Of a stretch of DNA of 64,000 bases, positions 24,709-44,171 are shown piece after piece (position 1 is the first letter of the stretch; every line of letters starts with the position of its first letter). The notes below the pieces were generated by a model that was not told the origin of the DNA, ran no database searches, and worked only from the letters and a program-made list of their open reading frames with translations. The translations under genes were made by a program, and so were the position numbers. This DNA comes from Coriobacteriia bacterium (lineage in GTDB: Bacteria > Actinomycetota > Coriobacteriia > Anaerosomatales > JAAXUF01), in contig JAAXUF010000008.1 in the NCBI GenBank assembly GCA_013336165.1, positions 4,538-68,537 on the forward strand, written 5' to 3'.

Positions 24709-25200
24709 TTGACCCTGTCACCGGATCACTACCTTCGCGCGGTTAGCGACATCGACCTTGACGCTTTGGCGGCTCAAGGCATCGACACGCTCCTGATCGA
24801 TCTCGACAATACGCTGTTGCCGCGCGATACGAGTAGGATCTCGGACGAGGCATTCGCTTGGGCCGCCGAGATCAAGAGCCGGGGCTTTCGTGCCTGCCTG
24901 GTCTCGAACAACTGGCATGATCGGGTGTTCAATGCCGCAGACTCGCTCGGGTTCGAACTCGTCTCGAAGGCGATCAAGCCGTTGCCGTTCGCATTCTTGA
25001 TTGCGCTCAAGAAGACGGGGTCGTCTCGGCGTCGGGCGGCCGTGATCGGCGACCAGCTTTTCACTGATATCCTCGGCGGGAAGATGCTGGGCATGAAGAC
25101 GATTATGGTGCTGCCACTTTCGCCCAGCGATCTTGCTCACACGCTGCTTCTTCGCCGCCTGGAGCGAGTGGTTCTGGCGGGACGGCAGCCGCTCCCGTAG
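24709..25200 (+). CDS. YqeG-family HAD-IIIA phosphatase
   Basis: 'LLIDLDNTL' is HAD motif I. 'LVSNN' and 'AAVIGDQLFTDILGG' are also present. It sits directly upstream of aroE, as yqeG does in Bacillus (from memory). Confidence 0.8.
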   Translation: MTLSPDHYLRAVSDIDLDALAAQGIDTLLIDLDNTLLPRDTSRISDEAFAWAAEIKSRGFRACLVSNNWHDRVFNAADSLGFELVSKAIKPLPFAFLIALKKTGSSRRRAAVIGDQLFTDILGGKMLGMKTIMVLPLSPSDLAHTLLLRRLERVVLAGRQPLP

Positions 25201-25237
25201 GATGGACTGTAGCGTCCTCGTAAGGAGCCGACGAGAA

Positions 25238-26137
25238 GTGCCTCATATCAGCGGGAAAACGAAACTTGCCGGCGTCACCGGCCGGCCCTTGGATCACTCG
25301 CTTTCGCCTGCGATGCATAACGCGGCGTATGAGGATCTCGGCTTGGATTGGGTGTATGTTCCGCTTGAAGTCTCCGACGAGCGCGCGCTGGCCGATCTGG
25401 CGGCGGCGGTTCGGGTCCTCCCGTTCGTCGGATTCAATGTCACCATGCCCTACAAGCAGGCGATGCTCTCTTTGTGTGACGAGGTATCTTCAGAGGCGCG
25501 CGCGGCAGGGGCCGTCAACACGGTTTCACACGCCGACGGTTGGCTCATCGGTCACAACACTGATGGCATCGGACTGCTTGAGTCACTGCGAGTTGATGCG
25601 GGCTTCGATCCGGCAGGCAAGCGAGTGGTACTCCTCGGCGCGGGCGGTGCCGCGCGCGGCGCGCTGGCGGTCCTGTTGCTTGCAGGATGCGAGAGCGTGA
25701 CCGTCGTCAATCGCGACATGTCGCGAGCTGAGGCGCTCATCGATGACATGGCGTCGTGGATCGGGTCGGCCGCGGTGGATGCCGCGGAGCTCGGCGACGC
25801 CGCCGAGCAGGTCGCAGATGCGCACCTCGTCATCAACGCCACGCCCTTGGGGATGCGTCCCGATGACGCGAGCCCCGTGCCCATCGAGTGGCTACATGCC
25901 GGTTCCGTCGTCCTGGACATGGTGTACGGCACTCCGCGCCAGACGGCGCTTGTCGAAGGCGCACGCTCACGCGGTGCGATTGCGGTCGACGGTCTCGGCA
26001 TGCTGGTGCACCAAGGGGCCGCCGCCATCGACATCTGGAACGCGGCTGCCGAGGGGCCACGCGCGTCGCGTGACGTCATGCGCCGAGCGGCAGAAGATGC
26101 GCTTGCCGTGCGATTCCAGCCCGAGCCGAGAGGGTAG
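25238..26137 (+). CDS. aroE: Shikimate dehydrogenase
   Basis: ORF 25133..26137 trimmed to GTG 25238, preceded by the RBS 'taaggag'. Shows 'GRPLDHSLSPAMHNAAY', 'GFNVTMPYKQ', 'GHNTDGIG', and 'LLGAGGAARG'. Confidence 0.9.
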   Translation: MPHISGKTKLAGVTGRPLDHSLSPAMHNAAYEDLGLDWVYVPLEVSDERALADLAAAVRVLPFVGFNVTMPYKQAMLSLCDEVSSEARAAGAVNTVSHADGWLIGHNTDGIGLLESLRVDAGFDPAGKRVVLLGAGGAARGALAVLLLAGCESVTVVNRDMSRAEALIDDMASWIGSAAVDAAELGDAAEQVADAHLVINATPLGMRPDDASPVPIEWLHAGSVVLDMVYGTPRQTALVEGARSRGAIAVDGLGMLVHQGAAAIDIWNAAAEGPRASRDVMRRAAEDALAVRFQPEPRG

Positions 26138-26140
26138 ATC

Positions 26141-27814
26141 ATGGCGGTCACCCGAAGCACACGGCTCGGCAGGATTTTGGTCGGATCCGGTCTGATCAGC
26201 GAGAGCCAGCTTGCACAGGCGCTTGCGGTTTCGGGCGACCGGCCGCTGCCGGGCGTCCTGGAGGAATTGCATTTTGCGAGCGAGATCGCCGTGGCCAAAT
26301 CGATTGCCGAGGTCATGCACGTCGATTTCATCGACATCGCGTCATACGATCTTGACCCGAATGCGGCGATCACCCTGAAGCCTGATCTGATGAGACGCCA
26401 TCGCGTCTTGCCGGTGAAGATGCAAAACGGCGACCTCATTCTGGCGATGGCCGACCCGGCCGATCTGTTCGCGCTTGACGACGTTCGCATCGCCACGCGT
26501 AAGGAAATTCACCCGGTCGTCGCAGTCGAGCGCGACCTTCTGGCGGCCATAGAGCGTTTCACGGCCTCGCAAACCAACGTGAGCGGGATGGTGGGAGATC
26601 TTGAGGAGAGCGTCGGCTCGAACCTCGAAGACGAAGAGAGTGCCGAGGCGGGCGCGGAGTCGCCGGCTTCGCGTCTCATGAACCACATCGTGACAGATGC
26701 GATTCGCCGAGGGGCCGGCGACATCTACATCGAGCCAGGCGAGAACGACATGCGTATCCGGTTTCGCATCGACGGGGTATGTCAGGTGGTCGACGTCTTG
26801 CCCAAGAAGCTGCACCGCCAGCTCGTGAGCCGCCTGAAGATCAGCGCCGGTATGGACATTGCCGAGAGGCGCGTCCCGCAGGACGGCCGCTTTGGCGTCA
26901 CCCTCGACGGCAAGGCGATCGACTTTCGAGTCGCCGTTCTCCCTCTGGTCTACGGCGAGCTGGCCGTGCTTCGGCTACTCAGGCGCGATTCGATCATGAT
27001 GTCGCTCACGGACCTCGGCTTTCTTGAGCATAACCTCAAGCAGTTCCTGAACGCTCTCGCGCTGCCGTACGGCGCGATCCTTGTGACCGGGCCGACCGGC
27101 TCGGGCAAGTCGACCACGCTCTATGCTGCGATCAATGAGACGAGCGATCCCACAGCCAACCTCATCACCGTCGAGGATCCGGTCGAGTATCAGCTTGCAG
27201 GTCTTTCGCAGGTCCAAGTGAACGAGAAGGCCGGGCTCACCTTCGCCGCAGCACTGCGCTCGATTCTTCGCCAAGACCCGGACAAGGTGATGATCGGCGA
27301 GATTCGCGACAAAGAGACCGGCACGATCGCGATCGAGGCCGCACTAACCGGCCACTTGGTGTTGTCCACGCTACACACCAACGACGCCCCCTCGGCGATC
27401 ACGCGTCTGACCGAGATGGGCATTGAGCCGTTCCTCTCGGCGTCCGCGCTCACGCTGGTGATGGCACAGCGTCTTGCCCGGCGCCTGTGCCCCGACTGCA
27501 AAGAGGTGTATCGGCCGGATGAGGAAGCCTTGCGCCGAATCGGGTTCCCGTTCGAGCCGGGCAAGGTCCCGCAGCTGTATCGGGCGCGCGGGTGCCGCAA
27601 GTGCGGCGGGGTAGGGTACCGGGGGCGTCTTGGAATCCACGAAGTCATGACGATGTCCGAGTCGATCCGCCAGCTGGTGGTCAGCCGAGTTTCCGCCGAC
27701 GAAATCGCAAAGCAAGCTGTGCGCGAGGGGATGCTCACTCTGCGAGACGACGGATTCGCGAAAGTGGCCATGGGTCAGACGTCGATCGAAGAAGTCCTGC
27801 GCGTCGTAGTCTGA
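26141..27814 (+). CDS. pilB: Type IV pilus assembly ATPase, PilB/GspE family (copy 1)
   Basis: 557 aa. The N-terminal T2SSE_N-like region is 'LGRILVGSGLISESQLAQAL'. Walker A is 'GPTGSGKSTT'. Also 'VEDPVEY', 'IMIGEIRD', and the His box 'GHLVLSTLHTN'. The tetracysteine 'CPDC...CRKCGGVGYRGR' is typical of PilB/GspE rather than PilT. Confidence 0.92.
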   Translation: MAVTRSTRLGRILVGSGLISESQLAQALAVSGDRPLPGVLEELHFASEIAVAKSIAEVMHVDFIDIASYDLDPNAAITLKPDLMRRHRVLPVKMQNGDLILAMADPADLFALDDVRIATRKEIHPVVAVERDLLAAIERFTASQTNVSGMVGDLEESVGSNLEDEESAEAGAESPASRLMNHIVTDAIRRGAGDIYIEPGENDMRIRFRIDGVCQVVDVLPKKLHRQLVSRLKISAGMDIAERRVPQDGRFGVTLDGKAIDFRVAVLPLVYGELAVLRLLRRDSIMMSLTDLGFLEHNLKQFLNALALPYGAILVTGPTGSGKSTTLYAAINETSDPTANLITVEDPVEYQLAGLSQVQVNEKAGLTFAAALRSILRQDPDKVMIGEIRDKETGTIAIEAALTGHLVLSTLHTNDAPSAITRLTEMGIEPFLSASALTLVMAQRLARRLCPDCKEVYRPDEEALRRIGFPFEPGKVPQLYRARGCRKCGGVGYRGRLGIHEVMTMSESIRQLVVSRVSADEIAKQAVREGMLTLRDDGFAKVAMGQTSIEEVLRVVV

Positions 27815-27961
27815 TCCGGCCCGACACCTTGAGGCCTGCAGTCGACGGACGTTGTGCCTGACCCCCCTTCGTGAGAACATTCGAGCGCGTCCCGACACTT
27901 GCCGATAATCGAGTGGACCGGGCACACACCGTTGGAGACGAAGACCGAAAGGTACTCTGGG

Positions 27962-28336
27962 ATGAATGCAGTACTTGAGTCTCTCATCGGAAGCGAGCCT
28001 GAGATAGAAGCTGCGGCATTTGTTCGAGGCGACGGCGCTGTCGAATCCTCAACCTTCCGTTCGAAGGCGCAGGAATCTCGCATCGGGGCAATGGCCGCAG
28101 CGATCGTTGATGTGTGCAATCGTGCTTCCGCCGAAATCGGCCGAGGCGAGCCGACGGAGGTGGCCATCGCGGGTGCGGACGGCTACGTCGCGATTGTCTC
28201 GGCGAAGGATGATAGGTACTTGGTATGTGCGACTTCCTTGGCGGCCGACGTTCGTACCGTGTTGGCAACCATGCGGGTGGTAGTGGATTCGAGCCAGACT
28301 GCCGGAGAGTGCGTCTCGCCGGCTCAACAGGGGTAG
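27962..28336 (+). CDS. Roadblock/LC7 domain protein (MglB/CvnB-like)
   Basis: ORF 27899..28336 trimmed to ATG 27962. At 124 aa it matches the Roadblock size. The pattern is 'IEAAAFVRGDGAVESS...AMAAAIVDV...TEVAIAGADGYVAIVSAKDDRYLVC'. Confidence 0.72.
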   Translation: MNAVLESLIGSEPEIEAAAFVRGDGAVESSTFRSKAQESRIGAMAAAIVDVCNRASAEIGRGEPTEVAIAGADGYVAIVSAKDDRYLVCATSLAADVRTVLATMRVVVDSSQTAGECVSPAQQG

Positions 28337-28351
28337 GGGCGAGCGCTCCAC

Positions 28352-29515
28352 ATGGCACTGCGCGGCAATCTTCAGGATTTCAGCCTTCCGGATATCTTTC
28401 AGCTGGTGTCATACAGCAGAAAGAACGGGGTGCTACACCTGCACGGTGCTGACGGCCTTACCGGTGACGTCATGTTCCGAGAAGGCCAGATCGCCCATGC
28501 TAGGAGCGACCGGTGGAAGGAGCCGCTGGGCGAGCGGCTTGTACGTTCGCGCAAGATATCGCGCCAAGACCTCAAGTGCGCTCTCGAAATCCGAGATCAT
28601 GGCGACTCGGATGACAGGCGTCTCGGGCGGATCCTTATCGACACCGGCTGTGCGAGCGAAGATGTAGTCACGGACTTCGTTCGCGAGCAGGTACAGGAGA
28701 CGGTTTTCGATCTCATGCAGTGGGAGGAAGGCGACTTCAGCTTCGAAGCGACTTCCGATGTCGTGGACGAAGATGTCGGCCCGGCACTCTCCATCGAGAA
28801 CATCATCATGGAGGGCAGCAGGCGGCTGGAGGAGTGGACCACCATCCGACGCAAGATCCCGTCGGCCGAGGTGGTGCTGGGGTTGGCTATCGCACCAGGG
28901 GACGGCGACGTCGACATCTCACTGAAGCCCGCTGAGTGGGCCCTGATGCCGTTCATCGACGGCCGACGCTCTGTCGCTACCATCGCATTTGAGTCCGGGC
29001 GCACGGAGTTCGAGGTCGCCAGAACGCTCTACGGGTTGCTGGGCGCCGGGCTGCTCGAGTTCGCCGAGACCGATGTCGACAGCGAGCAGGAGCCGCAAGC
29101 CGATCTCGCTGTCGTGACCGAGGAGCCGGTGCCCGCACAGGAAGAGGCGGAACTCGAACCGGAACCCGAACTAGAGCCGGAACCCCAACCCGAGCCGGTC
29201 TTCGTGATAGACGAACCCATCTACGAGACACTGCCGGTGGCCGAGCCGGAGATGCCGGCGGTCACCTCGCCTGAGGATGTGCCGCAAGGTCCACCACTCG
29301 CCCTCTTTGACGCCGAGCAGCCCGAGCCGACACCGGTATCCTTCGAGGGACTCGGCGAAGAGTTGTCTGCTCTGACTGGTGCAGAGCGCCGGGTGCGCCC
29401 GGAAGCACGGTCAGCGCCGGAACCGGACAGCCAACCCCGGGAGCCGTTGCGTTCCCGTTCTCAAATCAACAAGGACACTCTTCTCAAGGTCATAAATGGC
29501 CTGCGGAAGCTGTAG
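28352..29515 (+). CDS. PATAN/DUF4388-domain protein with an E/P-rich disordered tail
   Basis: - The N-terminus 'LRGNLQDFSLPDIFQLVSYSRKNGVLHL' is the DUF4388 (PATAN) hallmark.
- 'LGERLV...LGRILIDTG' resembles GspE-N repeats.
- 'LKPAEWALMPFIDGRRSVATIA...EVARTLYGLLGAGLLEF' looks like a winged helix.
- A roughly 130-aa E/P-rich region follows, including 'ELEPEPELEPEPQPEP'. Confidence 0.7.
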   Translation: MALRGNLQDFSLPDIFQLVSYSRKNGVLHLHGADGLTGDVMFREGQIAHARSDRWKEPLGERLVRSRKISRQDLKCALEIRDHGDSDDRRLGRILIDTGCASEDVVTDFVREQVQETVFDLMQWEEGDFSFEATSDVVDEDVGPALSIENIIMEGSRRLEEWTTIRRKIPSAEVVLGLAIAPGDGDVDISLKPAEWALMPFIDGRRSVATIAFESGRTEFEVARTLYGLLGAGLLEFAETDVDSEQEPQADLAVVTEEPVPAQEEAELEPEPELEPEPQPEPVFVIDEPIYETLPVAEPEMPAVTSPEDVPQGPPLALFDAEQPEPTPVSFEGLGEELSALTGAERRVRPEARSAPEPDSQPREPLRSRSQINKDTLLKVINGLRKL

Positions 29516-29530
29516 AGAGAGCAAGGGTAC

Positions 29531-30055
29531 ATGCATTCGCTCAAGGTCGTCATCGTTGGTCCGGCGGGCTCCGGCAAGACGACGTTCATCGGCGCAGTGA
29601 GCGAGATCACCGTGCTTTCGACCCGCCGCGAGATCGGTGCGGGTGGCAAGGATGCGGCGGACCGCATTGCGGTAGACATGGACTTCGGCCGGGTCACCCT
29701 TGCCGACGACATCGTTCTCTACCTCTTTGGCACACCGGGGCATGAGCGCGTTTCCTTCATGTGGGAGACTCTTTCCGAGGGGTTGCTCGGCTTCGTGGTG
29801 CTGCTCGACAGTGAGAATTCGGCGTCTCTCGAAGAGGCCCGCGAGACAATTGCGTTTCTGAGGGGTGACTCCGAGTTGCCATTTCTGGTCGCGGCGAACA
29901 AGCTTGCACCGGATGACGCAGCGGCCGTCAAGCATTTGCGCACGTCGCTGCACCTGCCCGATGACATTCCGCTTGTTTCGGTAGATGCAAGAAGCAGAGA
30001 ATCGGCAAAGCTAGTCCTTGAAGGTTTGGCGCAAGAAGCAGTGAGGAGAGGTTAG
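29531..30055 (+). CDS. Small Ras-like GTPase, CvnD/COG2229 'ATP/GTP-binding protein' family (MglA-related)
   Basis: 174 aa. P-loop 'VGPAGSGKTTFIGAVSEI', 'MDFGRVTL', G3-like 'LYLFGTPGHERVSFMW', 'GFVVLLD', and G4-like 'AANKLA'. This closely parallels Streptomyces conservon CvnD proteins as I remember them. Confidence 0.8.
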   Translation: MHSLKVVIVGPAGSGKTTFIGAVSEITVLSTRREIGAGGKDAADRIAVDMDFGRVTLADDIVLYLFGTPGHERVSFMWETLSEGLLGFVVLLDSENSASLEEARETIAFLRGDSELPFLVAANKLAPDDAAAVKHLRTSLHLPDDIPLVSVDARSRESAKLVLEGLAQEAVRRG

Positions 30056-30505
30056 ATGACCCCGGAGTTGAATCGGATCGCCCTTGTCGGCGGAGCGGGT
30101 CTCCTGCTGGTCGTCGCCATGATGGTGCTGATCGTCTCGGCTGTCCGTGGTTCCCGGGCACGGAAGCGGCAGAAGGCTGCGGCGGCGCAGTATGTCGCAC
30201 CGCCCGAGAGCGGGCAGTCTCCGGCTCCGGCCGAGCCCCCGGTATCGCCTCCGGTCTGGGTTCAAGCCGAGGAGCCCCTGGCCCCGGAGCCTGTCGGCAC
30301 GGCCGTTCTCCAGGAGATCGAGCCCGCCGACTTCTCCCCGGAAGAAGTGCCAGTCAAGTACGCGATGACCGCGCCGGCGGAGATGTGGTTCGACGATCTT
30401 CACGTCGGCGTCAAGGCAGAAAGCGTCACCGCCGAGCGTCTGCGCTACTATGCTGACATCCTATTGGATGAGGTACATAACTCCTCGTCGAAGCGCGAGC
30501 AGTAA
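30056..30505 (+). CDS. Single-pass membrane protein with a proline-rich linker, function unknown
   Basis: Its ATG directly abuts the GTPase TAG stop. The TM helix is 'IALVGGAGLLLVVAMMVLIVSAV', followed by a basic stretch and then a P/E/A-rich region. Confidence 0.55.
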   Translation: MTPELNRIALVGGAGLLLVVAMMVLIVSAVRGSRARKRQKAAAAQYVAPPESGQSPAPAEPPVSPPVWVQAEEPLAPEPVGTAVLQEIEPADFSPEEVPVKYAMTAPAEMWFDDLHVGVKAESVTAERLRYYADILLDEVHNSSSKREQ

Positions 30506-30526
30506 GCGGTCCAAAGAGAGGTTCTC

Positions 30527-32200
30527 TTGGCAGACGCGGCACAAAGGCTCGGTGAACTACTCGTTCGGGCGGGCGTCATCACGGCCAGTCAGCGAGACGA
30601 CGCCGTCCAGGTCCATGTCGCAACGGCTTCCCCGCTTGGCAAAGTGCTGGTTGAACTGGGCTATGCCAGCCACGGCGCGATCCTCGCGGTGGTGGCAAAG
30701 CAGATCGGCATCGAGTACATGGATCTGAGCGAGCGTCGCCCCGAACCGGGCGCCGTTGCGCTCATACCGCGCGAAGTTGCGACGCGCTACATGCTGATGC
30801 CGCTCGAGATTCGGGGCAACACTCTTCTGGTTGCCATGGCCGATCCACAAAACGTGCTCACCATCGATCACGTCAGGATCATCACCGGGCACGAGATCAG
30901 ACCCGCGATCTCGACGAAGAATGACATCCTTGAGGCGATCCGGCAGTACTACGATGTTGCCGATCGTGACGACAGTGACCTGCGCCTAGAAACAGACGAA
31001 CCGGACGACGAGGAACTCGGCCAGTTGGCGGACGTCGAGTCCGAGGCGCCTGCGGTCAAGCTCGTGAACTACATCATCCAGAAGGCCGTCAACGACCGGG
31101 CCTCAGACATCCACATCGAACCGCAACAAGATGAACTGCGCGTGCGGTTCCGGGTGGACGGCGTGCTCGTTGAAGCGACACCGCCGATCCCGAAGTCTAC
31201 TCAGGCATCCATCATCTCGCGGTTCAAGATCATGGCCGACATGGACATCTCGGAGTCGCGTCGGCCTCAAGACGGCCATTGCTCAGTATCCGTGGGCGGG
31301 CAAAAGCTCGATGTGCGAGTCTCGTCGTTGCCGACGGTTTTTGGCGAGCGCATGGTCTTGCGTCTCCTGCGCAAGGACTCGATCCTGCTGCAGCTCTCGG
31401 ATCTGGGCTTCCTGCCCTCGGCGAAGGACCGCTTTGAAGCCGCTTTCACCAAGCCGTACGGCGCGGTCTTGGTCACGGGTCCCACCGGTTCAGGCAAGTC
31501 GACCACGCTCTACGCTGCGGTCAATGTGCTCAACGACCCGTCCCGCCACATCATGACCGCCGAGGATCCGGTGGAGTACCGGCTCGCCGGCGTGAATCAA
31601 TGCCAGGTGAACCCCAAATTGGGAATGACCTTCGCGCGAGCGCTGCGATCGTTTCTGCGCTGCTCTCCCGATGTGATCTTGGTGGGGGAGATCCGCGACC
31701 AAGAAACGGCCAAGATCGCGATTGAGTCCGCGCTCACGGGACACTTAGTGCTCTCGACACTGCACACAAATGACTCCGCATCCGCGATCACTAGGTTGAT
31801 CGAGATGGGCGTCGAGCCGTTTCTGGTCTCGTCGGCTGTCGATTGCGTGCTCGCGCAGCGTCTTGCGCGGCGGCTATGCCCAGAATGCCGACAGGCGTGG
31901 ACGCCGGAATCCGGGGCGCTCATTAAACTGGGCTACGATGCCGATAGTCTTCCCGACGTCGTATACCGGGCCGTGGGTTGCAGAAAGTGCGGCGGCACCG
32001 GCTACAAGGGACGCTTGGGAGTTCATGAGGTTCTCTTGGTTTCCGACGAGATCAGGAGGCTGTGTGTTTCTGAAGCGTCAGTAGAGGAAATCAGACGCAC
32101 CGCCATTGAGCAGGGCATGAGGACATTGCGGCAGGACGGTCTTGAGAAGGTTCGACAGGGTCTGACGTCGGTTGAGGAAATCGTTCGTGTGATAGTGTAA
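30527..32200 (+). CDS. pilB: Type IV pilus assembly ATPase, PilB/GspE family (copy 2)
   Basis: TTG start, 557 aa (the same length as copy 1). Shows 'LGELLVRAGVITASQ', Walker A 'GPTGSGKSTT', 'ILVGEIRD', 'GHLVLSTLHTN', and the tetracysteine 'CPEC...CRKCGGTGYKGR'. Confidence 0.92.
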   Translation: MADAAQRLGELLVRAGVITASQRDDAVQVHVATASPLGKVLVELGYASHGAILAVVAKQIGIEYMDLSERRPEPGAVALIPREVATRYMLMPLEIRGNTLLVAMADPQNVLTIDHVRIITGHEIRPAISTKNDILEAIRQYYDVADRDDSDLRLETDEPDDEELGQLADVESEAPAVKLVNYIIQKAVNDRASDIHIEPQQDELRVRFRVDGVLVEATPPIPKSTQASIISRFKIMADMDISESRRPQDGHCSVSVGGQKLDVRVSSLPTVFGERMVLRLLRKDSILLQLSDLGFLPSAKDRFEAAFTKPYGAVLVTGPTGSGKSTTLYAAVNVLNDPSRHIMTAEDPVEYRLAGVNQCQVNPKLGMTFARALRSFLRCSPDVILVGEIRDQETAKIAIESALTGHLVLSTLHTNDSASAITRLIEMGVEPFLVSSAVDCVLAQRLARRLCPECRQAWTPESGALIKLGYDADSLPDVVYRAVGCRKCGGTGYKGRLGVHEVLLVSDEIRRLCVSEASVEEIRRTAIEQGMRTLRQDGLEKVRQGLTSVEEIVRVIV

Positions 32201-32238
32201 GGTGGTCTTCAGGCGTTATGGGGGTATGAGGAGCAAGA

Positions 32239-33447
32239 ATGACGACATTTGCATACGCGGTCAGGGACAAGTCCGGCAAGGTTGTGAAGGGCAAGCTTGA
32301 CGGTGAGAGCCAAGCGGCTGTCCAGAGCAAACTCTCCCAAATGGGCTACATCATTCTCGAGCTGAGACAGCAAAGTGCGCTCATGTCGTTCGGGGCAATC
32401 AAGATCGGCGGCAGCGTCAAGCCCAAGGAAGTCACGATCTTCGCACGTCAGTTCTCCACGATGATCCATGCGGGGCTCTCGCTCACGAAATGTCTGACGA
32501 TTCTGTCGCAGCAGACCGAGAGTGCAGCGCTTAAGGAAGTCATCGCTCAGATTGGGAAGGACGTCGAAGCCGGGCAGTCGCTATCTGAGGGGCTTGCTAA
32601 GCATCCCAAGGTCTTTCCCCCGATCTTCGTAAGCATGACCCGCGCCGGAGAAATCGGTGGTGTTCTGGACGAGGTCTTGGCTCGTGTGGCGGATCACCTT
32701 GAGGCCGAACAGGCTCTCAAAGGCAAGATCAGGTCCGCAATGATGTATCCGATCGCGATCGGATGCCTAGTAGTCCTCATCCTGGCGGCAATGCTGATCT
32801 TCGTGGTTCCCATATTTGTTGAGATGTTTGCGGGCATGGGAGGTACGCTTCCCCTGCCTACCCAAATCCTCGTAGACTTTTCCAATTTGGTCACGAGTTT
32901 CTGGGGCCTTGTGATTCTAGCTGCGATCATCGCTGTGATCTGGTTTTTTCGCTGGTGGTCCAAGGGGGCGGGGAAGCTGGCGTGGGACCGGATCAAGCTG
33001 GGCATGCCTGTCTTTGGGCCCCTGGTTCGAAAGATTGCTCTGGCTAGGTTCAGCCGGACCTTTGCGACACTGGTTTCCGCCGGTGTTCCGATCCTTCAAG
33101 CACTGGACATAGTCGCTGAGACATCGGGTAACGAGGTGATCTCTCTTGCTGTGAAGAAGTCGCGTGCTGCCATCAAGGAGGGCGAGACTATTGCCAAGCC
33201 GCTGTCGGAATCTAAGGTCTTCCCCCCGATGCTTGTTCAGATGATCAGCGTAGGCGAGGAAACCGGTGCGTTGGACACCATGCTCAACAAAGTTGCTGAG
33301 TTCTACGATGAGGAGGTCGCCTCAGCAACGGATGGGCTGACATCGCTGATTGAGCCGCTCATGATGGTTACGCTCGGTCTGATAGTGGGAGGTATGGTGA
33401 TAGCTCTGTACCTTCCGATGTTCAATGTGATAGCGTTAGTCAAGTAG
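32239..33447 (+). CDS. pilC: Type IV pilus platform protein PilC (GspF family)
   Basis: 402 aa with two GspF repeats ('FARQFSTMIHAGLSL' and 'FSRTFATLVSAGVPI'). The C-terminal 'EPLMMVTLGLIVGGMVIALYLPMF' is typical of the family. Confidence 0.92.
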   Translation: MTTFAYAVRDKSGKVVKGKLDGESQAAVQSKLSQMGYIILELRQQSALMSFGAIKIGGSVKPKEVTIFARQFSTMIHAGLSLTKCLTILSQQTESAALKEVIAQIGKDVEAGQSLSEGLAKHPKVFPPIFVSMTRAGEIGGVLDEVLARVADHLEAEQALKGKIRSAMMYPIAIGCLVVLILAAMLIFVVPIFVEMFAGMGGTLPLPTQILVDFSNLVTSFWGLVILAAIIAVIWFFRWWSKGAGKLAWDRIKLGMPVFGPLVRKIALARFSRTFATLVSAGVPILQALDIVAETSGNEVISLAVKKSRAAIKEGETIAKPLSESKVFPPMLVQMISVGEETGALDTMLNKVAEFYDEEVASATDGLTSLIEPLMMVTLGLIVGGMVIALYLPMFNVIALVK

Positions 33448-33571
33448 GGGGGTGGTTTCATCGAAGACTCTTGGCGTGTCTCAAGTTTCGCGTCCATGCG
33501 TCGATATAGGAACTACAAACACAGTGGGCGAACCCACGCAGGTCCCCAAAAGGGGAAGGAGACTCGAGGAA

Positions 33572-33952
33572 ATGCAAGCATTTCGCAAGAACGATGAAGG
33601 CTTCACGCTCGTAGAACTCATGGTCGTCGTTTTGATCATCGGTATCTTGGTCGCCATCGCGATCCCGGTATTCAACAACGCCAGCAACAACGCGCGTATC
33701 AAGTCTTGTCAGGCCAACATGCGAACCATTGAAGGCGCCTACCAGACGTACATGGCCAACAACGGCACGGCCATCACTGCCGCAACTACGGTTGTCTCGG
33801 GCGGGATCTTGGTTCCGGGCTTCATTGCCGCTGTGCCTGCGTGTCCCTCCGATCCGAACTTCGGAACCACCACCGCCAAGACCCCCTACAGCTTGGCTAC
33901 AACTGGCTTGACGGCCTGTCCGATCGTGCCTCTCACTCACATCCACTACTAG
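33572..33952 (+). CDS. pilA: Type IV (T4a-like) major pilin, copy 1
   Basis: ORF 33452..33952 trimmed to ATG 33572. The leader is 'MQAFRKNDEG', then 'FTLVELMVVVLIIGILVAIAIP' (class III signal, Glu at +5). The C-terminal Cys pair is 'ACPSD...TACP'. Confidence 0.9.
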   Translation: MQAFRKNDEGFTLVELMVVVLIIGILVAIAIPVFNNASNNARIKSCQANMRTIEGAYQTYMANNGTAITAATTVVSGGILVPGFIAAVPACPSDPNFGTTTAKTPYSLATTGLTACPIVPLTHIHY

Positions 33953-33959
33953 CATGCGA

Positions 33960-34015
33960 GACTCGCTGCCAAGGGTTCGCGGTTGGGTTTGTGCCGCGGC
34001 CCGTGGCAGCGAGTC
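33960..34015 (+). terminator. Strong inter-pilin stem-loop (candidate partial terminator or mRNA-stabilising hairpin)
   Basis: There is a perfect 12-bp inverted repeat: 'gactcgctgcca' (33960-33971) and 'tggcagcgagtc' (34004-34015). The 32-nt interior contains a nested 'cgcgg/ccgcg' pair. No U-tract follows. Confidence 0.4.
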
Positions 34016-34060
34016 CCTAAGGCGCGGCGATGTTTCCGAAGAAGGGGAAGCTGTACAGTT

Positions 34061-34441
34061 ATGATCAACTGGAGAAGACGGAACGAAGGTTTCACGCTCG
34101 TAGAACTCATGGTCGTCGTTTTGATCATCGGTATCTTGGTCGCCATCGCGATCCCGGTGTTCACGAACGCCAGCAACAACGCGCGTATCAAGTCTTGTCA
34201 GGCCAACATGCGAACCATTGAAGGCGCCTACCAGACGTACATGGCCAACAACGGCACGGCCATCACTGCCGCAACTACGGTTGTTCAGGGTGGGATCTTG
34301 GTTCCGACCTTCATTAAGGCGCCGCCCGTGTGTCCCTCAGATCCGAACTTCGGAACCACCACCGCCAAGACCCCCTACAGCTTGGCTACAACTGGCTTGA
34401 CGGCCTGTCCGATCGTGCCTCTCACTCACATCCACTACTAG
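34061..34441 (+). CDS. pilA: Type IV (T4a-like) major pilin, copy 2
   Basis: ORF 33983..34441 trimmed to ATG 34061. The leader is 'MINWRRRNEG', then 'FTLVELM...'. The mature part differs from copy 1 at 6 of 116 residues by my alignment. Confidence 0.9.
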   Translation: MINWRRRNEGFTLVELMVVVLIIGILVAIAIPVFTNASNNARIKSCQANMRTIEGAYQTYMANNGTAITAATTVVQGGILVPTFIKAPPVCPSDPNFGTTTAKTPYSLATTGLTACPIVPLTHIHY

Positions 34442-34545: not shown

Positions 34546-35376
34546 ATGGGATTGGGTGGATCAGTGGCTGCGTATGTCCTTCTGGCGGCTCTAGGTTTTG
34601 TCTTTGGCTCATTCGCAAACGTCGTCATTTGGCGTCTTCCGCGCGGTGAATCGCTGAACCACCCTGGCTCGCATTGTCCAAAATGCAGTTCGTCAATTGC
34701 ATGGTATGACAACGTTCCGGTGCTCTCCTACATCTTCTTGGGCGGGCAGTGCAGGGTGTGTGGTGCTCGTATATCACTGCGCTATCCGATCGTTGAGCTG
34801 CTCTCGGCGCTGTTGTGGCTCGCCGCCGGAATTCGGTTTGGTATCACGCCTCAAGCTGCGTTCGCTATGGTCTTCTTCTTTCTTCTGCTCATCCTTGCCT
34901 TCATCGATATCGACACCATGCGTCTGCCTAACGCTCTCACGGCACTGCTGTTCGTGATCGGCGCCATCGGCGTGGGTGTCGCTCAATTTGCTCAAATGGC
35001 GCTGGTTCCGCTCCTGCCGGTTGCCGCTCTACCATGGGGGCCGGGTGTCTCTGCCCTGATCGGGGCGAGTCTGTCAGCGGGTCTGGCGTTGGCAATTGCC
35101 GCGGCGTATGGCAGTTTGAGGAAGACCCAAGGCTTCGGCATGGGCGACGTGAAGCTATTGGGGGTCATCGGCGTCTTCCTTGGCTTGTATGGCCTCATGG
35201 TCTTCTTCTTGGGCAGTGTGATGGGGGCGGTGTACGGCGTGATCGTGGCGCGCCGTAGCGGTGGATCGTTGCAGCATAAGTTCGCCTTCGGGCCGTTTCT
35301 GGCTCTCGCTGCAGTGTTGGTGACGTTGTTCGGACCAACGCTGTGGTATTCCTACCTTGGCATCTTCGCGGGATGA
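34546..35376 (+). CDS. pilD: Prepilin peptidase / N-methyltransferase PilD (A24 family)
   Basis: 'CPKC...CRVCG' is the zinc/methyltransferase-region motif. It is a polytopic membrane protein. 'ILAFIDIDTMRLPN' and 'GFGMGDVKLLG' contain the two catalytic Asp motifs. Confidence 0.9.
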   Translation: MGLGGSVAAYVLLAALGFVFGSFANVVIWRLPRGESLNHPGSHCPKCSSSIAWYDNVPVLSYIFLGGQCRVCGARISLRYPIVELLSALLWLAAGIRFGITPQAAFAMVFFFLLLILAFIDIDTMRLPNALTALLFVIGAIGVGVAQFAQMALVPLLPVAALPWGPGVSALIGASLSAGLALAIAAAYGSLRKTQGFGMGDVKLLGVIGVFLGLYGLMVFFLGSVMGAVYGVIVARRSGGSLQHKFAFGPFLALAAVLVTLFGPTLWYSYLGIFAG

Positions 35377-35468: not shown

Positions 35469-36593
35469 TTGGCTCGATCATCTTTTGGCGCTGCACCACT
35501 GCCCGTTGGTCTTGATGTGGGGACTGACAGGATTCGAGTGGCTCAGATCAAGCAGAGTGGTATCGGCAGGGCGCTGACTGCCTATGGATCGATCACGATG
35601 CCGCTCGGTGCCACGGTTGAGGGGGAGATCATCGATCCGACGATCGTTTCCTTGGCAATCAAGAACCTATGGAGAAGCGTAGGCCTTCGCTCCAAAGAGG
35701 TTTCGATTGGCGTCTCGAACCAGAAGGTCATTGTCCGTCTGATTGACTTGCCATTCATGGACAAAGACGAACTCGCTGGGGCAATCCAGTATCAAGCTCA
35801 AGACTACATCCCAATTCCCGTAGAAGATGCTGTACTCGATTTTCAGATTCTTGGCGATTACATGACGCCATCTGACGAGCACATGATGGAAGTGCTTCTC
35901 GTCGCTGCGCAGCGAGACATGATCGCCAATGTCGTTGCCGCGGTTGAGGGGGCGGGTCTACGACTTGCCTCTATCGATGTCACTGCGTTCGCACTGGTTC
36001 GGGCGCTGCTGGGCACGGAAACCTCATGGCTGGCCACGGAGTTCAACGATCCAAGCCAGGCCTTGGGGGTCGTGCACATCAGTTCAGGATTGACCACGAT
36101 CGTGGTGCTAGAGCGAGGGATTCCGCGGTTCACCAGGGTTTCCTCTCTTGCCGGCAACCAGATGACACAAGCGGTTGCGACCGCTCTCAACATCACATTT
36201 GATGAGGCAGAAGCAATCAAGATCAAGGTCGGGCTGCCAAGTATGGACGGCACGCCCACCATCCCTGAGGGCGTCGACCCGGCTCAGGCGCAGGCCGCGC
36301 AGGAGACAATTGAACGCGAAGCGGGGAAGTTGATCGCCGAGATCCGTCGTTCTTTCGACTACTACCTCACTCAGGCTAACGGGGTACACGGTGTCCAGAA
36401 GGTCTATCTGACCGGCAATGGTGCACTTATGGGCAACCTGCCGGCGTATATGGAAAAAGGGCTGCAAGCGGAGGTGTGCTTGGGCGATCCGCTTGCGCAT
36501 GTGCAGATTGCGGCTGCGGTTGAGCACTCCGTCGTCGCAGACCGAATGGGCTGCGCGGCTTCGATCGGTCTGGCACTTGGGGGTACCTTCTGA
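35469..36593 (+). CDS. pilM: Type IV pilus assembly protein PilM (actin-like ATPase fold)
   Basis: TTG start. 'VGLDVGTDRIRVAQIK', 'DYIPIP', and 'IDVTAFALVRAL' fit PilM. The gene directly precedes pilN. Confidence 0.88.
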   Translation: MARSSFGAAPLPVGLDVGTDRIRVAQIKQSGIGRALTAYGSITMPLGATVEGEIIDPTIVSLAIKNLWRSVGLRSKEVSIGVSNQKVIVRLIDLPFMDKDELAGAIQYQAQDYIPIPVEDAVLDFQILGDYMTPSDEHMMEVLLVAAQRDMIANVVAAVEGAGLRLASIDVTAFALVRALLGTETSWLATEFNDPSQALGVVHISSGLTTIVVLERGIPRFTRVSSLAGNQMTQAVATALNITFDEAEAIKIKVGLPSMDGTPTIPEGVDPAQAQAAQETIEREAGKLIAEIRRSFDYYLTQANGVHGVQKVYLTGNGALMGNLPAYMEKGLQAEVCLGDPLAHVQIAAAVEHSVVADRMGCAASIGLALGGTF

Positions 36594-37255
36594 TGGTACA
36601 CATCAACCTTCTGCCTCGTGCCGTACTCAATCGCCGGCGCTATGAGCGGTGGTACCGCTACATCTTCATCATTGCGGTCGGCCTCGTGGCTTTGGTTCTG
36701 CTTCTCTCCGGCGCCCTGTGGCTGATGGTGCAACAGAAGACCGATACTCTGCAGAGCGCAAACGAGCAGGTTCAGCAATATCGAGCTCAATCGGATGCGC
36801 TTGCGGTGTTCGAACAAAACACGCAGACCTTGCAGGCCCGTCAAGCTGCTGTTCAGGCCGCCCTGTCGCAACGTGTTGACATGGGCAAGCTGGCCAACAA
36901 CATCTCTCTGGTTCTTCCTAGTGAGGTCTGGCTCAAATCAATCACAATAGGACAAGAATCCGGAGTGCTCGTGGTGGGGAGTACTCCACGTTCAACGAGC
37001 CAGTCGATGGATGTCGCCTACAAGTCGATCGCCAAGACGCTTGTGCGATTGGGCGAACTCAAAGAACTATCCAGCGTATGGCTTTCGAGCGCTGCCAACA
37101 CGATATGGCAGGAATGGGCCGTGCAAAGTGGATCAGCCAAGCCGGATCCGATCAATGTGGTCGGTTTCCAGATCACAGGGAAGCTAGACAAGATCAAGGC
37201 GCTTCTGGATGCGCCTGCCGCCTCGTCCACCACGTCCGGTACTTCGGGCAAATAG
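36593..37255 (+). CDS. pilN: Type IV pilus assembly protein PilN
   Basis: It has the canonical N-terminal 'INLLP' motif, a TM helix and a coiled coil. The ATGA start overlaps the pilM stop. Confidence 0.8.
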   Translation: MVHINLLPRAVLNRRRYERWYRYIFIIAVGLVALVLLLSGALWLMVQQKTDTLQSANEQVQQYRAQSDALAVFEQNTQTLQARQAAVQAALSQRVDMGKLANNISLVLPSEVWLKSITIGQESGVLVVGSTPRSTSQSMDVAYKSIAKTLVRLGELKELSSVWLSSAANTIWQEWAVQSGSAKPDPINVVGFQITGKLDKIKALLDAPAASSTTSGTSGK

Positions 37256-37267
37256 GGAGAGGGGCGG

Positions 37268-37885
37268 ATGACGTTGTCACCAAGGAACAAGGTCATACTC
37301 ACGATAGTGGGATGCGTTATTGCGATAGCGGTACTAGCTGTTGCCCTGATGCTGCCCATGTACAATGAGCTAGGCAAGTTGGATACACAGATTTCGACGG
37401 CGGACCAGCAGGCTGCGGTATTCAAGGCAAAGCTCGCTCAACGGCAGCAAATGAAAGATCAGTCTGCCAGCACGAACGCGACGTGGTTGCAGCTTACGAG
37501 CGCAGTACCGGAGAGCGCAAACCTACCTTCACTTATCATCGATTTGCAGGATGCTGCCTTTGCGAGTGGAGTCCAGTTAGTTGCGCTCACCCCCTCGGCG
37601 CCTACCTCACCCACAGCGGCGGCCGGTGGAGTGCAAGCGACAACGAGCGCATACCTGATCATTCCAGTCCAACTTGAAATCATTGGAACCTGGTCAGACA
37701 CGGTTGATTATCTGCAACGCATTCAGAAGCTGACCAGGAGTCTGCGCATCACGGAGTTCACTTCTACTGTGTCGGACAACGATACGCAGGCCAAGAAGGC
37801 AAATGCGACGTTGCCCGATTACTTCGAGGCAACCTCAATCAAGATCGAGGTCTATATGATTTCGGCGTCTGCGACGGGGAAGTAG
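37268..37885 (+). CDS. pilO: Type IV pilus assembly protein PilO
   Basis: A TM helix is followed by the coiled coil 'LGKLDTQISTADQQAAVFKAKLAQRQQ' and a C-terminal ferredoxin-like region 'IPVQLEIIGTWSDTVDYLQRIQKL'. The gene sits in the position after pilN. Confidence 0.72.
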   Translation: MTLSPRNKVILTIVGCVIAIAVLAVALMLPMYNELGKLDTQISTADQQAAVFKAKLAQRQQMKDQSASTNATWLQLTSAVPESANLPSLIIDLQDAAFASGVQLVALTPSAPTSPTAAAGGVQATTSAYLIIPVQLEIIGTWSDTVDYLQRIQKLTRSLRITEFTSTVSDNDTQAKKANATLPDYFEATSIKIEVYMISASATGK

Positions 37886-37894
37886 GGGCAGACG

Positions 37895-38455
37895 ATGACT
37901 GACACGAACTTCACCGATGTGCAGCAAACTGCCAGGCCTGCCGGCTTCTTCTCGACTTCAACCGGCAAGGTCGTGTTGGTTGCGATCGTCGCGGTTGTGC
38001 TGCTTGCCGCCGTTGGTGTCGCAGCCTACATGTTTCTGATTGGCACGCTTGCTCCCAGCAGTTCGACTGGCGGTTCTCCTCAAGTCACCGTTACCTCAAC
38101 GGTTACTTCGGGCACTGCCGGTTCTGCGTCTGCACCAGCCGAGCCGCCTCTATCGGAAACCTTCATCCTGCGAAACGTCTTCGCACCAACAGTGAAGCCA
38201 TCCATTGTTGCGGCCCCTACCGGCGGAGGTTCGTCTGTTACCGTTCCGACCAACACACTGTATCTGGTGAGTACTCAGCTGACGCCAACGAAGACGGCGA
38301 CCTTCATCTGGAACAACGTCACGTATGTGGTTGCGGAGGGTGGTCAGGTAGGCACTTCTCCATGGAAGGTGCTGACCATAAGCGAGGGTTCTGTGCTGAT
38401 GTTGTACGGCGACTCCCAGGTGACGCTGACATCCGGGCAGAGTGTCGGCAAATAA
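37895..38455 (+). CDS. Single-pass membrane protein with a PilP/GspC-HR-like C-terminal beta domain (tentative)
   Basis: The TM helix is 'VVLVAIVAVVLLAAVGVAAYMFLI', followed by an S/T/G/P-rich linker. The C-terminal 'ATFIWNNVTYVVAEGGQVGTSPWKVLTISEGSVLMLYGDSQVTL' resembles the PilP beta-sandwich pattern. The gene occupies the pilP slot after pilO. Confidence 0.4.
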   Translation: MTDTNFTDVQQTARPAGFFSTSTGKVVLVAIVAVVLLAAVGVAAYMFLIGTLAPSSSTGGSPQVTVTSTVTSGTAGSASAPAEPPLSETFILRNVFAPTVKPSIVAAPTGGGSSVTVPTNTLYLVSTQLTPTKTATFIWNNVTYVVAEGGQVGTSPWKVLTISEGSVLMLYGDSQVTLTSGQSVGK

Positions 38456-41743: not shown

Positions 41744-41788
41744 ATACACTTGACTGGGATGTTCGGCAATGGGGATGCGGATTTGGAC

Positions 41789-43501: not shown

Positions 43502-44154
43502 GTCGATTGACAATCAGGTGGCGCGAGCGCAAAGGCGAATTGGGCGGCGACGCGGGGTTCACCCTAGTCGAGTTGATGATTGCGGTCAGCTTGCTTTCGC
43601 TCGTGTTGGCGACTGCGTATATGGTTCTCAATAGTGTCAGTTCGATGAGTGACCGCGTCTCGGCTCGCGAGATGGCAGCATCCAGTGCGAACTTGGCGAT
43701 CGAGCGAATGACGCGTGAACTCCGGCAGGCGCAGGAGTTGTCAACCGCCGAGGGTGCCGGGGTCTTCAGATACAACGAGCCGCAACGTGCATCGTTCTAT
43801 ATTGACTTAGATCACAACGGCACGCCGGAACGCGTGACCTACTACGTCTCGGGAACCACGCTCTATCGGACGGTCGCCGTAGCTACGATCACGTATCCGG
43901 GCGCGGGGAACTTCGGTGCCGATAGCGCTCCAACGGCGGTGCTGAGTGGCTTGGATCCGGGGTGGACGCCCAATGTGTTTGTCTACTACGACAACAGCAG
44001 TGTTCCGGCCGTGGTCAGCTCCGCGAATCCGGACGAGGTTTCGGCGGTCGAAATCACCGTCGTCGCACAGGGACGATCCGGATCCATCACCGCCTCTGCC
44101 ACGAGCACGACCTGGGTCAGGATTCGCTCAGTTCATAACGACATCGCTTACTAA
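43498..44154 (+). CDS. Minor pilin (prepilin-type N-terminal cleavage/methylation domain)
   Basis: 'GDAG' followed by 'FTLVELMIAVSLLSLVLATAYMVL' (Glu at +5). The start overlaps the upstream gene's stop (GTGA). Confidence 0.75.
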   Translation: MSRLTIRWRERKGELGGDAGFTLVELMIAVSLLSLVLATAYMVLNSVSSMSDRVSAREMAASSANLAIERMTRELRQAQELSTAEGAGVFRYNEPQRASFYIDLDHNGTPERVTYYVSGTTLYRTVAVATITYPGAGNFGADSAPTAVLSGLDPGWTPNVFVYYDNSSVPAVVSSANPDEVSAVEITVVAQGRSGSITASATSTTWVRIRSVHNDIAY

Positions 44155-44171
44155 AGCTGGAGAGAAGAGCC

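Follow-up and report, generated by a model that had tools for sequence, protein, structure and literature searches.

Two conserved PilB-type ATPases flank a GTPase/PATAN cassette in a Coriobacteriia type IV pilus locus that has lost pilT

Background

Two extension motors can act on one type IV pilus, as described for PilB and TfpB of Acinetobacter (PMC11656802). Why some bacteria encode multiple PilB homologues is among the open questions named by the same 2024 review on the control of PilB (PMC11656802). Here we analyze a type IV pilus locus of a Coriobacteriia bacterium, located in a stretch of 64,000 nucleotides of contig JAAXUF010000008.1 (assembly GCA_013336165.1) that is further referred to as the window. 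In this locus, the genes of two PilB-type ATPases, PilB1 and PilB2, enclose a cassette that encodes a Roadblock/LC7 protein, a PATAN (DUF4388) protein, a small Ras-like GTPase and a protein named X. The locus resembles that of Acinetobacter baylyi in combining two phylogenetically distinct PilB-type ATPases with one machine and one platform. Unlike in A. baylyi, the genes of the two ATPases lie on either side of a GTPase/PATAN cassette inside the pil locus, which lacks PilT, the organism is a monoderm actinobacterium and neither ATPase is a TfpB.

Gram-positive type IV pili with two PilB paralogues, as in the window, are known from Clostridium perfringens and C. difficile. PilB2 of C. perfringens binds cyclic diguanylate (c-di-GMP) via its MshEN motif, according to a passage of PMC6958937 that cites PMC5405213 and to a passage of PMC11656802. 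The window differs from these clostridia, in which each PilB has its own PilC, the genes lie in separate operons, PilT is present and a Roadblock/PATAN/GTPase cassette is lacking. PATAN regulators of Synechocystis bind both PilB1 and PilC, and PATAN co-occurs with GspE_N (10.1101/2021.06.11.447907). The window shares with the cyanobacterial PATAN-REC proteins (PixG, PixE and TaxP1) a PATAN protein tied to PilB/PilC, and Synechocystis also has a PilB1 and a PilB2. In contrast to the PATAN-REC proteins, the PATAN protein of the window has no receiver domain, carries a MshEN-like insertion and is encoded between two PilB genes, beside a GTPase.

Genes of the MglA/MglB family are occasionally neighbors of PATAN genes (PMC4316618). 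The pairing of a Ras-like GTPase with a Roadblock/LC7 protein recalls MglA/MglB (and SofG) of Myxococcus and the CvnB/CvnD pair of conservons. MglA and SofG of Myxococcus control the placement of PilB and PilT. The module of the window differs from the Mgl and conservon systems in its location inside the pil operon, in the absence of a histidine kinase or DUF742 protein as found in conservons, in the G4 Asp, which is mostly absent, and in a G3 His that replaces the catalytic Gln in the window. Finally, type IV filaments without a PilT-family ATPase at the locus are described for gonococcal pilT mutants and for the adhesion pili of Sulfolobus. Unlike in those cases, the absence reported here results from recent and recurrent gene loss from a PilT-containing ancestor.

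Each element of the locus thus has a published precedent, namely PATAN-PilB binding, MglA/MglB genes near PATAN genes, a c-di-GMP-binding PilB2 and two motors per pilus. In the literature searched, we found no description of an in-locus pilB1-cassette-pilB2 module, of a MshEN-type insertion in this PATAN protein, of complementary c-di-GMP motifs or of recurrent pilT loss in this locus. Cultured Anaerosomatales are non-motile rods with many pili-like appendages (PMC9686372). That paper and its supplement contained nothing usable on pilT or pilB, nor did a literature search for pilT in Coriobacteriia.

Results and discussion

One pilus machine with two PilB-type ATPases

The locus is best explained as encoding one type IVa pilus machine of the Gram-positive type, embedded in an aro operon and equipped with a single set of PilC, PilD, PilMNO and pilins. 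The gene order is aroE, PilB1, Roadblock/LC7, PATAN, GTPase, X, PilB2, PilC, pilA1, pilA2 and PilD, followed by PilM, PilN-like, PilO, a 186-aa membrane protein, aroC, aroK, aroB, a minor-pilin/adhesin block, pepP and efp (Table 1). We hold with about even confidence that this machine, a variant of the known two-PilB systems, has a platform shared by two extension motors that the cassette gates.

Both ATPases are 557 aa long and combine an N-terminal MshEN/GspE_N domain (Pfam PF05157, 75 bits for PilB1 and 79 bits for PilB2) with a T2SSE domain (PF00437, 447 and 459 bits). The start codons, ATG for PilB1 and TTG for PilB2, are consistent with those of the orthologues. A sequence-only reading of the window had described them as two equal-sized ATPases of the PilB/GspE type rather than the PilT type, and the family profiles agree. 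The best NCBIfam family for both is PilB (TIGR02538), with scores of 604.7 (PilB1) and 626.3 (PilB2) bits that lie below the equivalog cut-off of 675.65 bits. GspE ranks second (574.5 and 595.1 bits, cut-off 630) and ComGA scores approximately 250-265 bits. With 158 and 182 bits against a cut-off of 319, neither protein falls within PilT (TIGR01420), and neither is a TfpB (NF053534, 430 and 447 bits against a cut-off of 850). The best matches of both in the PDB are PilB/PilF proteins of Geobacter, Myxococcus and Thermus. The AIRNLIRE-type motif that is found in the PilT of relatives occurs in neither PilB, and both have an N1 domain at 557 aa, versus approximately 350 aa without N1 in PilT.

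The catalytic and zinc-binding motifs, of which Walker A, the His box and the tetracysteines had been noted earlier, are all present in both proteins: Walker A (GPTGSGKST, at aa 317 in PilB1 and 318 in PilB2), the Asp box (EDPVE, 345 and 346), Walker B (379 and 380), the His box (TGHLVLSTLHT, 403 and 404) and the zinc motif (CPDC...CRKC at aa 450 and 485 in PilB1, CPEC...CRKC at aa 451 and 485 in PilB2). The two sequences are 48% identical overall, with 30% identity over residues 1-150, 49% in the N2D and 60% in the C-terminal ATPase domain, as expected from the earlier remark that the N-termini are diverged and the cores similar. Family profiles, motifs and gene context together lead us to assign a putative PilB extension role to both ATPases.

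Sets of 49 full-length PilB1 and 29 PilB2 orthologues were compiled. Of these, 49/49 PilB1 and 28-29/29 PilB2 orthologues retain Walker A, Walker B and the His box, and 46/49 and 29/29, respectively, retain the Cys4 zinc motif. Nei-Gojobori dN/dS ratios range from 0.04 to 0.25 for PilB1 and from 0.03 to 0.15 for PilB2. Given the intact motifs across orthologues and the low dN/dS, neither copy is decaying; judged from these sequence sets, both are under strong purifying selection. Distinct conserved differences separate the two sets at 29 sites, and PilB1 evolves somewhat faster, with a mean within-group distance of 0.34 versus 0.28 for PilB2. The faster evolution of PilB1, together with the loss of half of its c-di-GMP motif (see below), could be taken to mean that PilB1 is a degenerate ATPase that acts as a sensor or scaffold, a regulatory subunit rather than a motor. 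We regard this as extremely unlikely in view of its catalytic motifs, including a Walker B with the canonical RQDPD, its cysteines and its dN/dS values.

The residues preceding Walker B differ between the paralogues, as PilB2 has RCSPD in 29/29 orthologues instead of the canonical RQDPD of PilB1. In the window, this site reads LRCSPD (31652-31669, PilB2 aa 376-381), whereas PilB1, PilT and most outgroup PilBs have a near-universal xRxDPD. The shared length of 557 aa was considered as a meaningful feature and rejected: the listed PilB1 relatives mostly measure 545-560 aa and the PilB2 orthologues approximately 555-557 aa (544 in one gene call), so the equal length is incidental.

A shared platform argues against two separate filaments

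The window PilBs are encoded alongside PilC, PilD, PilMNO and the pilins, and PilC is single-copy in the window. This arrangement bears on the earlier proposal that the two ATPases serve different pilin sets. In such a case, PilB1 and PilB2 would build different fibers on shared machinery, e.g., a PilA1/PilA2 pilus versus an adhesin-displaying fiber or pseudopilus, or one of them would have a secretion-type function. Such a division would be comparable to PilB1/PilB2 of clostridia or PilB/MshE of Vibrio. The N1 domains, which are thought to contact the platform or stator (PMC11656802), are the most diverged part of the two proteins, a separate minor-pilin/adhesin block exists, and clostridia do use two PilBs (PMC6958937). 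However, PilC, PilD and the PilMNO set each occur once in the window, while the extra PilBs of clostridia and Vibrio each have their own platform protein. The products of pilA1 and pilA2 are 90% identical, and PilB1 is associated with the regulatory cassette rather than with any pilin gene. The proposal of different pilin sets is weakened by the single set of machinery and the near-identical pilins, and we consider two filaments unlikely.

Recurrent loss of pilT

A tblastn search of the 64 kb with PilB1, PilB2 and four PilTs of relatives revealed no third T2SSE-type ATPase and no pilT remnant, in line with the absence of a PilT-type ATPase that had been noted from the sequence. At least 12 relatives that carry PilB1, the cassette and PilB2 have a genuine PilT gene between PilB2 and PilC as well. 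PilT-bearing loci are L105, L106, L108, L118, L154, L161, L164 (Coriobacteriaceae bacterium EMTCatB1), L165/L166, L167 and L168, and L123 has a frameshifted copy. The PilT of these relatives is 354 aa long in most cases and displays an AIRNLIR(D/E)-type motif in addition to Walker A and a His box. The gap between PilB2 and PilC measures 32-119 bp in 17 loci (the window and 16 others), versus approximately 1.13-1.9 kb where PilT is present. The order aroE-pilB-pilT-pilC is also seen in other Actinomycetota and in several other phyla sampled. PilT-bearing loci are basal and scattered in the PilB2 tree, and when PilB1 and PilB2 are concatenated and no regain is assumed, 4-7 independent pilT losses are needed in 200/200 bootstrap trees. 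The ancestral locus was therefore pilB1-cassette-pilB2-pilT-pilC, and pilT was deleted in the lineage of the window and independently in several sister lineages. As PilB1, PilB2 and the cassette coexist with PilT in relatives, the two-PilB design is older than the loss of PilT and independent of it. Since the ancestral PilT was lost secondarily, the second PilB is not a compensation for its absence.

These results do not support the earlier suggestion that one paralogue has taken a retraction role. In such a scenario, one PilB, most plausibly PilB1, would retract the pilus or work bidirectionally after pilT was lost, with the cassette switching the direction. PilT is indeed missing from the 64 kb, and retraction without a dedicated ATPase is documented in other systems. 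A close PilT orthologue from the contig of L132, a relative with a PilT-less locus on a contig of 2,037,191 bp whose genome is in the database, was also not found among the 120 best PilT matches, which hints at genome-wide loss. The suggestion is nevertheless very improbable to us, because the relatives described above combine PilT with both PilBs and the cassette and because both proteins keep the PilB-specific N1D and Zn finger and score at PilB level, far under the PilT cut-off. Moreover, substitutions that track the loss of PilT are lacking in PilB2 and limited to four weak, variable sites in PilB1, and dN/dS is similar in PilT-bearing and PilT-less lineages. We find it still harder to accept a related, antagonistic arrangement in which the cassette swaps the two PilB hexamers on one PilC, one extending the pilus and the other depolymerizing or stalling it. 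If it were true in PilT-less lineages, it would represent a mechanism of retraction or reversal made wholly of extension-type ATPases.

An ordinary retractile pilus is another explanation, in which pilT or pilU would lie elsewhere in the genome and the two PilBs would be partly redundant extension motors. The search for PilT covered 64 kb of the source genome, and pilT is often encoded apart from pilB in bacteria. Against this, every PilT context inspected within the clade (five database look-ups and the metagenome loci) is the slot between PilB2 and PilC, and the search result for L132 points the same way. Purifying selection on both PilBs and their 29 distinct conserved sites also argue against simple redundancy. 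We therefore judge an ordinary retractile pilus to be quite unlikely, and we infer that motor-driven retraction has been lost.

In the basal lineage, small open reading frames (ORFs) are inserted between PilB2 and PilT: two in L154 (4747-5375, 86 and 123 aa) and one in L161 (13962-14441, 159 aa). They may be toxin-antitoxin-like.

Conservation and origin of the two PilB paralogues

The order aroE-PilB1-Roadblock-PATAN-GTPase-X-PilB2-PilC is kept in more than 60 loci of environmental Coriobacteriia (OPB41/Anaerosomatales group). It is present in four database relatives (L002-L005) and in nearly all of 80 metagenome loci that were retrieved with the PATAN protein as query. A pattern scan of genome contigs with generic patterns yielded two close relatives and 78 diverse PilB loci, the latter being used as outgroups. 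The nearest homologues of PilB1 are from uncultured Coriobacteriia and Actinobacteria metagenome-assembled genomes (MAGs), with 69-77% identity.

The orthologues of PilB1 and those of PilB2 are each monophyletic, with a bootstrap of 100/100. PilB2 outscores PilB1 against most of the nearest outgroup PilBs from Actinomycetota and other monoderms, and it occupies the canonical place directly upstream of (pilT-)pilC. In L163, a more distant lineage, aroE-Robl-PATAN-GTPase-X precedes a lone PilB, which is nearer to PilB2 than to PilB1. When 1.84 billion representatives were searched exhaustively, the PilB1 family consisted of one full-length representative, P0026, and a fragment of 449 aa (67% identity), and outside this family no representative exceeded 51% identity over the whole protein. 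Closeness to the outgroups, canonical position and the exhaustive search together identify PilB2 as the likely ancestral motor of the canonical extension type and PilB1 as an old paralogue restricted to the clade of environmental Coriobacteriia. A recent transfer of PilB1 from another phylum was considered and rejected, as only the representative of its own family exceeds 51% identity over the whole protein.

The window is on a long branch in the PilB2 tree. Pilus loci with a pair of full-length PilB genes were also encountered in Planctomycetia, Omnitrophota, Verrucomicrobiota and Kiritimatiellae (L071, L073, L078, L052 and L079). The two genes are adjacent in L071, L073 and L078, and a PilT-like gene lies between them in L052 and L079. 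Among the best representatives, proteins of approximately 1000 aa that give two matches of the PilB type are common (P0285 and approximately 20 more). In P0285, a second N2D and ATPase core come after a full-length PilB, forming a covalently fused double PilB.

Putative regulatory cassette between the PilB genes

The cassette contains both a Ras-like P-loop GTPase and a Roadblock/LC7 protein, as expected for a pair of the MglA/MglB type. The G1 motif of the GTPase is GPAGSGKTT in the window and GPxxxGKTT in the orthologues. The G3 motif is FGTPGQ in the orthologues and FGTPGH in the window (codon 71, 29741-29743). Gln occupies the catalytic G3 position in 43/51 orthologues, and the window copy is the sole one with His (1/51). 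The Asp of the G4 motif (NKxD) is found in 13/51 orthologues and is absent from the window copy. The basal lineage (L151-L155 and L161) has neither a Roadblock gene nor X; in its GTPase, the P-loop Lys is replaced by Thr and the G3 Gln by Asp or Ala, so that it looks like a pseudo-GTPase by its motifs. The lineage without Roadblock is thus precisely the one in which these two GTPase residues have been replaced. This joint loss fits a role of Roadblock as GTPase-activating protein (GAP), and Roadblock is presumed to be the GAP partner of the GTPase.

A hydrophobic segment of protein X at aa 8-26 corresponds to its one transmembrane helix. This is followed by a Pro-rich linker and a C-terminus, described as cytoplasmic, of which approximately 45 aa are conserved in relatives. 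Protein X has no Pfam or NCBIfam match. The PATAN protein continues, C-terminal to an insertion that interrupts its domain, with a winged-helix-like part, a low-complexity linker and approximately 55 conserved aa at the C-terminus.

The proteins of the cassette are much shorter in the window than in L002-L005 and L164-L168: 145 aa versus approximately 138-266 aa for Roadblock, 387 aa versus 494-724 aa for PATAN and 149 aa versus 201-533 aa for X. The differences lie mostly in low-complexity linkers.

Complementary c-di-GMP motifs

The profile NF053729 describes the MshEN c-di-GMP receptor module, which consists of two half-motifs of 24 residues, and has a cut-off of 38 bits. PilB2 scores 39.7 bits, above the cut-off, with both half-motifs present. 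The second LG is found in 29/29 PilB2 orthologues and both core motifs in 24/29. PilB1 scores 26.1 bits, below the cut-off, and its match is limited to profile positions 1-24. The Gly of the second LG is missing in 49/49 PilB1 orthologues, the first half-motif being retained and the second degenerate. By its motifs, PilB2 carries a complete predicted c-di-GMP site, whereas PilB1 has lost the second half.

A third match to the motif lies in the insertion of the PATAN protein (aa 58-113, nt 28523-28690), which is helical and conserved and matches the MshEN motif in 64/64 orthologues (best E 2.3e-14). In an AlphaFold 2 model (predicted local distance difference test score of 85.9), four helices are inserted in the beta-rich domain, which precedes the winged-helix-like part. 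With Foldseek, the insertion aligns locally on MshE with bound c-di-GMP (5htl) at a root-mean-square deviation of 1.1 Å over 58 columns with 33% identity. Profile matches and the model suggest that some PATAN proteins may be c-di-GMP receptors via a MshEN-type helical insertion. A locus of an Acidimicrobiaceae MAG (L007, 8836-14618) encodes aroE, PATAN, PilB, an EAL/HDOD protein, a stand-alone MshEN-domain ORF, PilT and PilC. This arrangement indicates that PATAN and c-di-GMP components are tied to PilB beyond the Coriobacteriia.

A model for cassette-gated extension

The proposed sharing of one platform by two cassette-gated extension motors could operate as follows. PilB2 would be the platform-adjacent, ancestral motor that responds to c-di-GMP, and PilB1 a catalytically intact second motor that is always encoded directly upstream of the regulatory cassette. 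The GTPase/Roadblock switch and the PATAN protein, as a putative c-di-GMP-sensing adaptor, would set the time at which a PilB hexamer docks onto the PilC/PilM platform, or select which of the two does so, with X as a membrane-anchored component of the cassette. The motors might split extension into priming and processive assembly, as Acinetobacter PilB and TfpB, or alternatively into c-di-GMP-dependent and c-di-GMP-independent assembly. The outcome would be pili that extend without a dedicated retraction motor and serve adhesion or mineral contact rather than twitching. The idea that the intervening GTPase cassette acts as a selector had been put forward from the sequence alone. It stands as plausible, supported by the strict synteny, the MshEN-like motif of the PATAN protein, the binding of Synechocystis PATAN proteins to PilB and PilC and the motif asymmetry between PilB1 and PilB2.

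Several points weigh against this model. Division of labor and gating by the cassette are what we infer from synteny and motifs. The window GTPase, with its G3 His and without G4 Asp, may not cycle like MglA. The window copy of the PATAN protein scores 32.9-34 bits with NF053729, below the cut-off, position 10 of its first half-motif is not the conserved Gly, and the match to MshE in Foldseek is local and statistically weak (E 0.05). All trees are neighbor-joining trees, and the joint monophyly of PilB1 and PilB2 has a bootstrap of 51/100, which is compatible with a duplication within the clade as well as with an older origin. For the organism of the window, the absence of PilT refers to the 64-kb window.

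The clade represents a compact natural test case, with two conserved extension motors, one platform and candidate regulators encoded between the motors, and sister lineages with and without PilT are natural knock-outs. The link between PATAN and PilB is extended from cyanobacteria to Actinomycetota. Recurrent pilT loss agrees with the lifestyle of cultured Anaerosomatales, which are described as non-motile, densely piliated and mineral-associated (PMC9686372).

Other features of the locus

The features of the locus are collected in Table 1.

Table 1 Coordinates of the pilus locus features in the window
Feature	Position	Strand	Evidence and remarks
aroE, shikimate dehydrogenase	25133..26137	+	Pfam Shikimate_dh_N, Shikimate_DH, SDH_C
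PilB1, 557-aa PilB-type ATPase	26141..27814	+	ATG start; MshEN + T2SSE
Roadblock/LC7 (MglB-like), 145 aa	27899..28336	+	Pfam Robl_LC7 37.5 bits; position conserved
PATAN (DUF4388) protein, 387 aa	28352..29515	+	Pfam DUF4388 (PF14332) 115.1 bits, aa 4-162 with insertion (gathering threshold 25)
Small Ras-like GTPase, MglA/CvnD kind, 174 aa	29531..30055	+	Pfam ATP_bind_1 57.9 bits, Arf 28.7 bits, Ras
Protein X, 149 aa	30056..30505	+	N-terminal transmembrane helix; no family match
PilB2, 557-aa PilB-type ATPase	30527..32200	+	TTG start; MshEN + T2SSE
Vacant pilT slot, 38-bp PilB2-PilC junction	32201..32238	.	PilT gene of approximately 1.06-1.2 kb at the same place in relatives
PilC platform protein	32239..33447	+	Pfam T2SSF x2; NCBIfam PilC models
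pilA1 and pilA2, tandem major pilin genes	33452..34441	+	Pfam N_methyl; likely true starts ATG 33572 and ATG 34061
PilD prepilin peptidase	34546..35376	+	Pfam A24_N_bact, Peptidase_A24
PilM, PilN-like, PilO, 186-aa membrane protein	35469..38455	+	Pfam PilM_2, PilO; ORF listing
Minor-pilin/adhesin block, 3 genes (583 aa with Ig-like domains, 218 aa, 430 aa)	41750..45464	+	N_methyl + CarboxypepD_reg + SpaA-type domains

The aroE gene is the conserved upstream edge of the pilus locus. Its stop codon is separated from the start of PilB1 by 3 nt, and it is located directly 5' of PilB1 in relatives too. A scan of 24.5-38.6 kb for promoters and terminators gave counts that were not above those of shuffled sequence, and operon boundaries can therefore not be claimed from it. 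An exact copy of PilC was found on a Logan contig of 2.4 kb, and no record matched PilB1 exactly. The order of PilM, PilN-like, PilO and the membrane protein is identical in L164 and L165.

The pilA1 and pilA2 genes are tandem duplicates with 90% identity over the last 126 codons, and their differences concentrate in the leader and in mature residues 75-90. The 583-aa pilin-like protein of the minor-pilin/adhesin block bears CarboxypepD_reg and SpaA-type Ig domains. In the window, this block lies 3' of aroC-aroK-aroB; a comparable block of 3-4 genes, some with weak N_methyl matches only, is found between PilD and PilM in L164, L165 and L168. The differing position suggests a local rearrangement, the two blocks being likened by position and content only.

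The remaining genes of the window are housekeeping genes. At 3322-6954, the window also encodes a fusion protein of 1210 aa that joins RecJ (DHH, DHHA1 and RecJ_OB) to HIRAN and a DEAD/Helicase_C helicase.

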